A DNA stretch of 64,000 nt, from assembly GCA_964016885.1 (NCBI GenBank), contig OZ024752.1, positions 19,096,001-19,160,000 of the forward strand. The letters are read 5' to 3'. The position numbers and the translations under genes are program-made. The stretch's first letter is position 1, and every line of letters starts with the position of its first letter. A model generated the notes under the pieces. That model was not told the DNA's origin, did no database searches, and was given only the letters and a program-made list of their open reading frames with translations. Positions 54,851-61,967 of this stretch are shown one piece after another. Source of the stretch: Eledone cirrhosa (lineage: Eukaryota).

Positions 54851-54946
54851 GCTGGGGGATCGTTAGGGGACGGCTATGACAGAGAAGCTTCTCCCCATTC
54901 TGCTAATGAGTATTTTGTGGGCCTGAGTATCCCAGGTGCTATCGAG
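54851..54946 (+). CDS. P3H: P3H-like exon G1 (module 2): AGGSLGDGYDREASPHSANEYFVGLSIPGAIE
   Basis: ttttatttattacag| acceptor and |gtatta donor; 96 nt, phase 0-0. Matches P3H GDGYRGQTSPHTPNEKFYGVTVFKALK. Confidence 0.85.
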
Positions 54947-56324
54947 GTATTAGCGATGTTCTTTCATAAAGCTGAATGGCCTTAATTCCAATTAATGTCT
55001 ATTTCATAAAAACAAATGTGGATTTATTTTATTTTATAGATTATAAAATGTTCTAAAGTCTCAGCTTCTTAATTCGTTTTCCATTAGATGGTTGCAATGA
55101 TCAGATGATAAAATGTGAAACTTTGCAGACAGCTTCTTTTCAAGTAATATACCCTCTTCCCTAACCTTGAAAATGTTTTTTAAAAAATAAAATAACAACT
55201 ACATAACAACAAACAGTAATTTCCTTTTGTTGTTAGAGCGTACCCCCGGCATTCACAGTCCCAGCATTCGTGGCCCCGGTTATTCGCAGAATTTTCCTTA
55301 GAACCTAATTGTTTGTGGAAACCATCCCATATTTGCAGAATCATAAATATCTTCTCTGATTTTATTTTTATGCCTTTTTATTCCTTTTTTCGTGGCAATA
55401 TATATTTTTAACACTAAATTATTAATAACAATGTACTGTATTTGCTGGCCTATTTTTTAAAAAATTATATTTTATGTTATATTTTTACGTTTATAGGCAT
55501 TTTATTAAAATTGGACCACGTCCAATATTCGCAGTTTTTCACTCTTTGTGGGTGCTCTAGAGTCGTAAACCCCACAAATATTGGGGGACAACCAGTTTGT
55601 CAGCTGGTCCAAGATTAGCTTCTGTTGGCACTATGTTTGAACAAAATGACCATCCTTACATCCACTAGACATTTGTTTTCAGCATGCTAGTTTAAAAGAA
55701 CTGTCTTCAGCCTGGTCAATGCAATCAGCTATTCATTTGAAGCGTTGGTTAGTAAAAACCAAAAATGAAAAACAAATAGAACATTTTATGAAAATATTTA
55801 CAGATTTTTATTTAATTCAATTAATTAATTTATTTGCTGTCCATTTTACCCCCAAATTCCATTATACATATATTTAATTACCTTAATTACCTGCATAATG
55901 GCATACTTGTGTTGTACAATCTTTACTTCCCAGCTTCTCTCTTCCTCCTAAATATAAACTGAATGACCATACATCGCTTTTTCTTTTATATACGGAATTG
56001 CATTTTTCTTCAAGACTATAAATATTATTTGTATTATGTAAAATAAGTTTTCAGGATTTAAAAAAAAGATATTTGAATATTTTATATATAAATTTTATTG
56101 TAAACTTATTTCAAATATTTTCTTTAATATGCACCATGGTTTTTTTTTTTTTTTTTTTTTCTCTAGATGTGTTAGAGAAGGGTGCTATTCTGTTAGAGTA
56201 CTATTGTATTTTTGTGATGCATGGTTGTGCTGGAATGTCTCGTAATAATGTATATTCATTTTCATGTAAATGTGACTTTATATAGAAGATAACTAATTTC
56301 TGATTGATTTAAGTCTATGAAAAA

Positions 56325-56450
56325 GTTATTTATCTTTGCCTTATTTAAAATTATTTATCTCCGCCTTATTTAAAATTATTTATGTTCGCCTTATTTAAAA
56401 TTATTTATGTTTGCCTTATTTAAAATTTATTATCTTAGCCTTATTTAAAT
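56325..56450. repeat. Short tandem repeat, ~25 bp, about 5 copies
   Basis: gccttatttaaaattatttat repeated. Confidence 0.8.
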
Positions 56451-58603
56451 TTCAACAGGTTTAGAGTAGTTTCAGTTTTTTTTATCCATTAAATCTTCTA
56501 TTTTTCTTAATACATTTATTTCCAGTAGCATATTTTTAAGTTTCCTATTCTTACATAGAACCTTTTCTTTTCAATTGTATATTCCAAAAAGCCACCATCC
56601 TATAGACATCTAGTGTATTAGATTTATTCTTGTAAAACAAGTGTTTTGCAAAACCCATATCATAAAGAGCTGCATAATATCAGTAGAGTGTCAGACAACC
56701 TTGCTGAGGTTAGCTTTGCCTATCATCCTTACAGGGTTGAGAAAATAAAGCACCAGTAATGCACTGGACTAATTGCCCACCTTGTGCCCCAAATTGCTGG
56801 CCTTGTGCCTAAAGTAGAAATCATTATTAAGACAATCCATATGCTTTAAGTCTAGTTTAATGTCTTTCTTTTGGCCATCTGTAGAAATTTCACATTAACT
56901 TTGTGTATTAAGATTGAATATTAATGTCACTTATCATGCATTTATGTGTATGTTACTGATTCTATCTCCAGTGCGTGTCCCTCACCATCCTCTGGGGAAA
57001 CGCCTTCTCTATTCTGTCTGCTGAGGCCGTGGGGTGTCCAGCCTACCGGGGCAGTCAGTGCGTGGACCCTCATAATAGTGAGAGATGGGGAGAGCAACAG
57101 AGGCAGTGATAGTGGGAGGTTGTTTCCTTTGTGTGCGGACCTGGTGTCTATGTATATATTTATTTACCGCGTCACATGTTACATACATATACAGATCTTA
57201 ACCAGCATATTAAATTGTAGATATTGTCACATTTAGCTGTATCATTTGTAGCTGCTTTTACATCGAGACAAATGATTTCAGTCATGTTAGAGTTTGGTAG
57301 AATTAAGTAGGGCTTTTAAGTTGGGTCTCATTTATAAACAAATTTTACATTCCAAATTGAAAGGACTGTCATAGCTTCAAGAAGTTTTAGGAAATATGTA
57401 GGAATAGAGCACCAGTAATACACTGGGGTCAATAAAATTAACTTTCCCCTCCTCCCGAATTTGTTGGCCTTGTGTCTAAGTCAGAAAGTTCAAATCCTGC
57501 CGAGGTTAGCTTTGCCTTTCATCCTTACGGGGGTCGATAAAATAAAGTACCAGTAATACACTGGGATAAATTTAATCAACTTTGCCCTCCCACAAAATTG
57601 CTGGCCTTGTGTCTAAAGTAGAAATCATTATTATTATTATAAGAATAGTGGATCAATAATATTTTCCTTTTGATTATTTTGTTGTTGTTGTTTTCATTTG
57701 TATATTCTTTTTCCTTCTTCATTCTCTATATATCTCTGAATTGATCTTTTGATTGGGTTATTCAATCAATGATATTTTCAATTTAATTCCAGCCTCTGAC
57801 GCTTAACATACAACATATATTTATATAATATAATATATATAACTTTTAGTAGCTTTGGTAAATTAACTAAACTCTGCTCCAGGCTCACTAAACGTGCTTG
57901 TTACTCACAATTTAAAACAGTTAACATTTGCAGCTCTCTTTGTGTGTGGCTGTTCTATTCTACTTGTAGATCGTATGGATAAATTAGATATATTGCTGTG
58001 TGTTTTTGTAATATATATATATGTAGTATCTGTCTATATATTTCTATATTTCTACTAATTTAATCAAATTGTAGCAGTAATGTTTGCGAAAATACCTTTT
58101 GATTTGAACAGTTGAATTGGTGTACAGTTATTCCTGTCATACAAAGAAAACAGCACATATATTCTGTTTTGACAAATATATATCTGTGTCTTATTGTATG
58201 TTCACTTGAAATATTTCTCTCCCTTTGTCTACATGTGTGTCTTATTGTATGTTCATTTGAAACATTTCTCTCCAGTGTGTGTTAAATATTCTGTTCAAGT
58301 CTCAGGCAATTTGTAACAACTGAACAAATATTTAACATACATGTGAGAAAATGCACCCATTCACAGCATATATAAATCCACTTGTTCAATGTACAATGTT
58401 CCTTTTATATATTTTAACTTTTTGTTTATTATTATCATTATTATTAGTAGTAGTAGCAGTAGTAGTAGTATTCTAATATTTTTTCCTTTTATTTTTTCTT
58501 TATTTTTTTCAACATAAAAACAAAGCAGCTTTCTGAAGTTTTACTCACATCTTTGATAAAAGGTGTGAGTAAAAAAACAAACAAACAATATTAATGAAAT
58601 TAA

Positions 58604-58684
<81 letters not shown>

Positions 58685-58698
58685 CTCTCTCTCTCTCT

Positions 58699-60592: not shown

Positions 60593-60803
60593 CCCTTTAG
60601 CATTTACATTACTCTACATATTTTATTGTATTTTCACGATAAACACTTTATTTTACCTAATTATCTCACATACTATCGAATCTACATGATTTTGATATTA
60701 TTTATTTTGAGAACAATACCTTAACATAAGTATGAGCAGTCGGTTTGAACAGAAAGAGGTGAGAGAATTCTGGCTGGATACAGCCAGTTTAAATGCTAAA
60801 TGG
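60593..60803 (+). mobile_element. piggyBac-type MITE
   Basis: ccctttagcatttacattactc ... aatgctaaatgg-TTAA. Confidence 0.7.
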
Positions 60804-60894
60804 TTAAACTCAGTAAATATTTCTGAGAACCCGTCCTCACATATAATATGACCCCAAACTCCCACTTTTTCCCTGAATTTAAATTTAACATATC

Positions 60895-61731
60895 TGGAAT
60901 TATACACAAGAAAATATAGTAATAGGATTATATTTCACATTTATGGAATTATACACAAGAAAATATAGTAATAGGATTATATTTCACATTTATGGAATTA
61001 TACACAAGAAAATATAGTAATAGGATTATATTTCACATTTATGGAATTATACACGAGAAAATATAGTAATAGGATTATATTTCACATTTATGGAATTATA
61101 CACAAGAAAATATAGTAATAGGATTATATTTCACATTTATGGAATTATACACGAGAAAATATAGTAATAGGATTATATTTCACATTTATGGAATTATACA
61201 CAAGAAAATATAGTAATAGGATTATATTTCACATTTATGGAATTATACACAAGAAAATATAGTAATAGGATTATATTTCACATTTATGGAATTATACACG
61301 AGAAAATATAGTAATAGGATTATATTTCACATTTATGGAATTATACACGAGAAAATATAGTAATAGGATTATATTTCACATTTATGGAATTATACACAAG
61401 AAAATATAGTAATAGGATTATATTTCACATTTATGGAATTATACACAAGAAAATATAGTAATAGGATTATATTTCACATTTATGGAATTATACACGAGAA
61501 AATATAGTAATAGGATTATATTTCACATTTATGGAATTATACACGAGAAAATATAGTAATAGGATTATATTTCACATTTATGGAATTATACACAAGAAAA
61601 TATAGTAATAGGATTATATTTCACATTTATGGAATTATACACGAGAAAATATAGTAATAGGATTATATTTCACATTTATGGAATTATACACAAGAAAATA
61701 TAGTAATAGGATTATATTTCACATTTATGGA
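60895..61731. repeat. 49-bp tandem repeat, about 17 nearly identical copies
   Basis: Unit tggaattatacac(a/g)agaaaatatagtaataggattatatttcacattta. Confidence 0.95.
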
Positions 61732-61853
61732 AACAAACAAATGAATTGAGATATAATTGTTTCTACTTTTGGCACAAGTTTGAATATAATATAATCTATC
61801 TATATGTAGAGTTTGCTTAAAAATGGTTGCTTGTTTATCTACCCCTCATCTAG

Positions 61854-61967
61854 GATGGATCTGTGCGTGGAGATGGATACAAACATCAACAAGGCATACT
61901 TTCTTTAATTTCCCCACACACAAAGCATGAGCTGTTCCAAGGCCTCACCGTGGCTCGAGCAGCCAAG
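61854..61967 (+). CDS. P3H: P3H-like exon G2 (paralog of G1): DGSVRGDGYKHQQGILSLISPHTKHELFQGLTVARAAK
   Basis: cccctcatctag| acceptor and |gtttgt donor; 114 nt, phase 0-0. GDGY, SPHT, E.F.G.TV..A.K all conserved. The gene continues beyond the window. Confidence 0.85.

Follow-up and report, generated by a model that had tools for sequence, protein, structure and literature searches.

Human P4HA1 appears in a list of tandem exon duplication substitutions (PMC8373072), and splice variants of the human enzyme C-P4H-I are described as altering its substrate-binding hairpin loop (PMC9676403). More generally, convergent origins of mutually exclusive homologous exons across animals are reported to be well documented (PMC9741552). 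Both the hairpin of prolyl 4-hydroxylases (P4H) and the beta2/beta3 loop of the PHD enzymes are described as binding substrate and affecting selectivity (PMC9676403; PMC5007464), and a swap of four residues in the PHD loop is reported to shift selectivity between NODD and CODD (PMC5007464). As for the prolyl 3-hydroxylases (P3H), P3H1 and P3H2 are described as differing in collagen preference and the role of 3-hydroxyproline as poorly understood (PMC7619536), and no peptide is modelled in the reaction centre of the human P3H1 structures as described (PMC11381544). How P3H enzymes select their few target prolines is unresolved, and natural isoforms that differ in a predicted substrate loop would make the role of that loop testable. 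Here we analyse 64,000 nucleotides of the Eledone cirrhosa genome (assembly GCA_964016885.1, contig OZ024752.1, forward strand; hereafter the window), where two homologous exons of a P3H gene, G1 and G2, had been proposed from the letters alone to be mutually exclusive (hereafter the original prediction). The explanation that we favour, with a probability of roughly 60%, is that G1 and G2 are ancient tandem duplicate exons of a single P3H gene, mostly spliced in singly and giving the enzyme a short substrate-closing loop in one case and a longer one in the other.

Both G1 and G2 are real exons (Table 1). Their reading frames are stop-free and give the peptides first quoted for them, their donor sites read GTATTA (G1) and GTTTGT (G2), and the end of the upstream exon F and the start of the downstream exon H are in phase 0, matching both ends of either copy. 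Global alignment of the two peptides scores 53; none of 10,000 shuffles attains this value (their mean is -17 and the highest 25). The alignment places a six-residue insertion in G2 between GDGY and SPH. In this regard, the original prediction was right that the two exons are homologous, stop-free, bounded by valid AG/GT splice sites and equal in phase, and that the G2 loop is longer by six residues. Its further statement that no other P3H exon was seen between them in the sequenced part also stands: in the whole 44 kb from F to H, tblastn with four full-length cephalopod P3H proteins recovers G1 and G2 as the only P3H exons, the remaining matches having E >= 0.12 and being located elsewhere. 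Adjacent, homologous, equal in phase and contained in one gene, G1 and G2 are tandem duplicates.

By its domain content, the gene is a prolyl 3-hydroxylase of the leprecan family, with the TPR region, the 2-oxoglutarate (2OG)-Fe(II) domain and the KEEL end all present. Exon F finds its matches in cephalopod prolyl 3-hydroxylases, proteins 924-984 aa long. When the Octopus sinensis protein was searched with tblastn against the window and 100 kb on either side, one colinear gene was obtained; it comprises four upstream exons, then, inside the window, exons C, D, E0, E and F followed by G1 and G2, and finally the common downstream exons H, I, J and K, which lie past the window at window-equivalent positions 93461-101127 and form the single downstream set in the 100 kb beyond it. 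Searches of the genome with two catalytic exons, and with G1 and with G2, listed one match each, which is a lower bound. The encoded protein comprises the leprecan TPR region (PF23557, E 1.8e-68 in the O. sinensis orthologue, with four matching upstream exons in the Eledone genome) and two tandem 2OG-oxygenase modules, G1 and G2 belonging to module 2. The P3H profile matches human P3H1 (8k0e_A) at E 4e-230; the catalytic residues H796, D798, H864 and R874, that is, H-x-D...H plus the 2OG-binding arginine, are invariant in the P3H alignment and are encoded by the Eledone downstream exons, and the last exon terminates in KEEL-stop, an endoplasmic reticulum (ER) retention-type signal.

The segment encoded by G1 and G2 is predicted to sit at the position of the substrate-covering hairpin of P4H and of the beta2/beta3 loop of PHD enzymes, a placement on which three weak lines of modelling evidence agree. 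AlphaFold2 models of the G2-only and G1-only isoforms of O. sinensis (mean predicted local distance difference test score, pLDDT, of 86.0 and 84.0, respectively) predict the same elements for both copies, namely a helix end, a short strand, the loop, a strand and a helix start, with loop pLDDT of 89-95 in G1 and 60-78 in G2. Module 2 matches the folds of algal P4H (3gze_A; Z 15.5, root-mean-square deviation 3.3, 180 aligned residues, model 658-887 to 38-250) and of PHD2 (5l9b_A; Z 14.8, root-mean-square deviation 4.3, 196 aligned residues, model 649-888 to 188-397). If the N-terminal offset holds, loop residues 700-719 would correspond to residues 80-99 of algal P4H and 239-258 of PHD2; the substrate hairpin of the former is given as Ser77-Thr94 (PMC9676403) and the beta2/beta3 loop of the latter as 237-250 (PMC5007464). 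Profile alignment (hhalign) against 25 EGLN proteins, with probabilities of 92-93% and E values of 4e-7 and 7e-7, places the loop at PHD3 residues ~55-78, column confidence being low in the loop region; Ala62, Gly63, Arg65 and Leu73, reported as selectivity residues of PHD3 (PMC5007464), fall within the matched stretch. Among solved structures, the only match to G2 is a weak one to human P3H1 residues 496-523 (E 1.6), and HMMER leaves the G region unaligned to any P4H or PHD. The fold offset and the profile alignment support the location put forward in the original prediction, a loop near the catalytic pocket that sets substrate preference in related enzymes.

Gene models of relatives use the two copies alternatively. 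In O. sinensis, the automated RefSeq models XP_029636107-110 already cover all three forms with a copy, X4 carrying G1 alone, X3 G2 alone, and X1 and X2 both copies joined. G1-only RefSeq models are XP_029636110.1 and XP_052823988.1 (O. sinensis and O. bimaculoides), and G2-only models are XP_029636109.1, CAI9722698.1 and GAB1602337.1; G2 alone is found in both O. vulgaris models, in the Argonauta model and in all five cuttlefish-cluster proteins that span the region, and it is likely the default form in cephalopods. We surveyed 25 protein clusters, taking up to 15 listed members of each (for the Pacific oyster, 15 from a cluster of 87), and considered the 25 lophotrochozoan species with at least two named models spanning the region, where exons were deduced from isoform differences between protein models. 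Both segments occur among the listed models of 24 of these species, Argopecten being the exception, and each copy stands alone in models of 18 of the 24. Since automated gene models may rest on rare junctions, these counts give no frequencies, and the lists carry no isoform abundance. Among full-length mollusc-type proteins derived from Logan/ENA assemblies, 12 of 14 have one copy (nine G2, three G1), several of the 14 being near-copies from the same clusters. These models from relatives support the view that G1 and G2 are duplicate exons that one gene uses alternatively.

Contigs from four runs of unrecorded kind, all from one study, were compared with window positions 48600-55100, which cover F and G1; joins G1-G2, G2-H and G1-H lie outside the reach of this comparison. 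One contig of 1348 nt matches 48680-49033 and diverges from the genome on either side of exon F, as expected of a spliced transcript. Past exon F it runs on for 804 letters, and the single further base that matches would suit the start of either G1 or G2, unlike that of H; in the same run, the last 54 bases of G1 are uncovered and an F-G1 joint is absent among the joints listed. The contig hints at an F-G2 transcript, and because contigs drop rare variants we do not use it as evidence on G1.

Both copies are strongly conserved. G1 (32/32) and G2 (38/38) are identical to their O. sinensis counterparts, compared with 70-95% for nine other exons (H, 44/50; I, 35/37; exon F in Table 1), which points to purifying selection on both copies at the protein level. 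G1 is also identical (32/32) to the O. bimaculoides model, and G2 matches Argonauta and a cuttlefish-cluster protein at 34 of 38 positions. The species with both segments comprise a cephalopod, gastropods, bivalves, two nemerteans, a brachiopod and a bryozoan, and single both-exon models are found in Aplysia, Bulinus and the annelid Paralvinella as well. Across 17 mollusc sets, lengths range from 30 to 34 aa for the first copy and from 38 to 42 aa for the second, two mussel sets with a second copy of 33 aa being the exception; four of the split points were placed by hand. Single-copy outgroups, arthropods and deuterostomes, have a segment of 31-32 aa, so the long loop is derived, and G1 retains the ancestral loop length. 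A search with G1 alone against 1.84 billion cluster representatives gave 0 matches at E <= 0.001, the query being too short.

The pair is probably ancient. With the loop excluded, cross-class identity is 59% for G2-G2, 45% for G1-G1 and 50% for G1-G2; by these figures G2 is the conservative copy outside the loop and G1 has diverged faster across classes. Within-species identity of G1 and G2 (51%) equals the cross-class value (50%), which favours an old duplication, likely one that predates the snail-clam-cephalopod split. Gastropods, bivalves and cephalopods separated more than 500 million years ago. One old duplication followed by faster evolution of G1 would fit these identities. Profiles built leaving one class out assign 30 of 34 segments correctly, and a loop-free nearest-neighbour test only 16 of 30, so the sorting mostly reflects loop length.

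Three further features of these models were observed. Patella caerulea has a second P3H-like locus, with two models, each of which has neither copy. Lingula models contain a third alternative segment of 24 aa after the two copies, in six combinations. In gastropod models, the first copy is lengthened by four residues at its end in three caenogastropods and by five at its start in Biomphalaria, which suggests conserved alternative splice sites.

Taken together, these data lead us to propose that G1 and G2 were duplicated within the only P3H gene found in the Eledone genome, and that splicing would mostly include one copy, giving an enzyme with a short loop or with one six residues longer. Splicing regulators, rather than a hard physical block, would choose between the copies. 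As predicted from the fold, the loop would cover the collagen substrate, and its exchange may alter substrate preference or kinetics. We thus consider that the pair likely swaps the substrate-covering loop of P3H, as modelled, and that regulated, leaky substitution is the best reading of its splicing.

Several observations weigh against this proposal. Among the listed models, a both-exon form occurs in 20 of the 24 species with both segments and a neither-exon form in 10 of the 25, and two mussel-type assembled proteins carry both copies. At the locus, nothing in reading frame, intron geometry or RNA pairing was seen to enforce exclusivity. Enforcement by reading frame is rejected, as both exon lengths are multiples of 3 and double inclusion or skipping would proceed without frameshift or the penalty of nonsense-mediated decay; a steric block is rejected as well, given the long intron and an upstream AG located only 42 nt from the G2 acceptor. 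Of 12 flank RNA pairings in this one genome, 11 are within the shuffle range, and the remaining one, G1-upstream with G2-upstream, reaches -21.2 kcal/mol, an uncorrected value lower than in all 20 shuffles; an inverted-repeat scan returned mostly TA repeats. The mapping of the loop rests on a range offset and on low-confidence hhalign columns, not on residue-level superposition. Once the loop is removed, only 2 of 15 G1 segments have G1 as nearest cross-class neighbour, and a tree of the exons (37 rows x 38 columns, without mussel pairs, non-mollusc pairs and B. glabrata) leaves G1 versus G2 unresolved, with 21 of 34 inner branches open and five changes needed for each copy. Because neither loop-free neighbours nor the tree separate G1 from G2, one origin rests on copy order and loop length; the non-mollusc pairs differ in their lengths. 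The original prediction of mutually exclusive exons holds as far as alternative use within one gene is concerned; its strict exclusivity is not shown, considering in-frame lengths, an intron of 6.9 kb and the both-exon models in 20 of 24 species.

A bolder version of our proposal is possible, albeit tentative: the pair would constitute a lophotrochozoan splicing switch, more than half a billion years old, in the substrate loop of the group's single P3H, with short- and long-loop isoforms acting on different collagen sites or types by tissue, re-purposed in mussels as an add-on exon and converging on the P4HA1 loop.

Clearly less probable than our main proposal, and its most serious competitor, is the idea that G2 makes the working enzyme and that G1-only, double and skipped forms are minor products that reduce or tune activity or alter partner binding, without a second substrate specificity. 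The greater conservation of G2 outside the loop agrees with this idea, and so do its closer similarity to outgroup single exons (59%, versus 48% for G1, loop excluded), its exclusive presence in the five cuttlefish-cluster proteins, Argonauta and both O. vulgaris models, and the neither-exon models noted above. However, G1 is unchanged at 32 of 32 positions among octopods, retains the near-invariant tyrosine, glutamate and glycine columns, is predicted to fold with high confidence, and is the sole copy in three of the 14 assembly-derived proteins.

We consider it improbable that G1 and G2 are independent cassettes whose routine double inclusion produces a doubled, enlarged loop region, as apparently occurs in mussels. 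In addition to the frequent both-exon models, which include O. sinensis X1 and X2, and the preservation of frame on double inclusion, this notion draws on five Mytilus species for which only G1-alone and both-exon models are listed, G2 there being without GDGY, and on the two assembled double proteins. Yet 12 of the 14 assembly-derived proteins have a single copy, and most species keep a common core motif in both copies, which fits substitution; moreover, in the models the strand and helix start of each copy fill one position of the fold, so that the double form would have to extrude a copy. In mussels the second copy measures 33 aa and is present only alongside the first, also in the two assembled proteins. 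Mussels may possibly have shifted from substitution to an add-on exon.

That G1 is an unused remnant in Eledone cirrhosa is very unlikely: although G1 is known there from genome sequence alone and its donor GTATTA falls short of a strong consensus, it is identical over 32/32 residues to two Octopus species, as against 70% for the neighbouring exon F, its splice sites are intact, and G1-only RefSeq models exist in O. sinensis and O. bimaculoides. Least likely of all is the alternative raised by the original prediction, that the 200-N gap hides the rest of module 2 and that G2 is part of a further, third module or of a tandem paralog, which the uncertain real length of the gap and the tandem catalytic modules of this gene might have favoured, and which is ruled out by O. 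sinensis X1 and X2, where G1 is spliced straight to G2 with nothing in between, by X3 and X4, which swap the copies in an otherwise identical region, by gastropod and bivalve models that agree with direct joining or replacement, and by the presence of one downstream exon set, with nothing further from P3H between F and H.

Table 1. Positions of P3H exons and associated features, counted from the first nucleotide of the window
Feature	Position	Length	Strand	Remarks
P3H coding exon, start of degenerate catalytic module 1	32028-32225		+	47/66 identical to O. sinensis; AG/GT
P3H coding exon, module 1	43873-44017		+	35/48 identical to O. sinensis; AG/GT
P3H coding exon, module 1	45467-45530		+	17/20 identical to O. 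sinensis; AG/GT
P3H coding exon, module 1	47005-47068		+	16/21 identical to O. sinensis; AG/GT
Exon F: module 1 end, linker, catalytic module 2 start; common upstream exon	48682-49032		+	82/117 identical to O. sinensis; phase-0 end
Exon G1, short-loop copy	54851-54946	96 nt (32 aa)	+	phase 0/0; AG/GT
Intron separating G1 from G2	54947-61853	6,907 nt	+	contains assembly gap, CT microsatellite and 49-bp tandem array
Assembly gap	58699-58898	200 N		immediately follows CT microsatellite
Exon G2, long-loop copy	61854-61967	114 nt (38 aa)	+	phase 0/0; AG/GT

The 49-bp tandem array between G1 and G2 has 17.4 copies with a 98% match (60879-61732) and ends 121 nt upstream of the G2 acceptor. Minus-strand frames lie at 35258-37045 and 21900-25100, in the long upstream intron, and at 62645-63199, after G2; from their translations we take the first two to be LINE-type (long interspersed nuclear element) reverse-transcriptase-like and the last to be a transposase-like remnant. 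About 400 nt downstream of exon H, a partial duplicate of its 3' part (window-equivalent 93977-94081) adjoins a retroelement fragment. In the molluscs checked, module 1 is without iron ligands and module 2 retains them. The lophotrochozoan P3H has two tandem catalytic modules, with H-x-D kept in both in Lingula and Paralvinella, only in the first in a partial Capitella model, and, among the molluscs and nemerteans checked, only in the second. The G-type loop is likewise missing from octopus module 1.

The kind of system to which G1 and G2 belong is already known, and their isoforms are present in automated annotations; the functional difference between them is predicted. These RefSeq models are unreviewed predictions, carrying neither a statement of exon homology nor a functional reading. 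A description of the pair, or of invertebrate P3H splicing, was not found in the literature searched, outside which most subscription papers lie, and the terms P3H and P3H1 are absent from the main text of two human exon-duplication catalogues (PMC8373072; PMC9741552). The Eledone enzyme belongs to the same family as vertebrate P3H1, P3H2 and P3H3. Unlike mollusc P3H, the vertebrate proteins sampled have a single catalytic module, with the segment present once and 32 aa long. The original prediction had envisaged that one gene could mimic the P3H1/2/3 diversification through its loops, an idea that finds no support: in 10 vertebrate P3H1 and 14 P3H2 proteins (P3H3 being outside the sample) the segment is always 32 aa with a 4-residue loop, and it is 68% identical between these paralogs. 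P3H shares the fold of PHD2 and PHD3, and the G loop aligns by profile, with low column confidence, to their beta2/beta3 loop; the PHD isoforms are separate genes, whereas the P3H copies are exons of one gene.

Like tandem duplicated exon substitutions in general, the P3H exons are adjacent, homologous, equal in phase, conserved and probably ancient; in contrast to the general class of mutually exclusive homologous exons, their exclusivity is only a candidate property. The closest parallel is human P4HA1, also an ER collagen prolyl hydroxylase with two homologous exons, to whose hairpin G1 and G2 would correspond. The mollusc enzyme differs from it in being a 3- and not a 4-hydroxylase, of another family and lineage, which makes a separate duplication likely; the P3H copies also differ from each other by a loop insertion of 6-7 residues, both being multiples of 3 in length, and both-exon and neither-exon P3H models are annotated. 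By this comparison, the P3H pair is likely a convergent counterpart of the P4HA1 exons in a sister enzyme. If our proposal is true, G1 and G2 represent a natural loop-swap experiment on the choice of rare prolines by P3H, and add to the evidence that collagen prolyl hydroxylases have repeatedly acquired duplicate exons around the active site.

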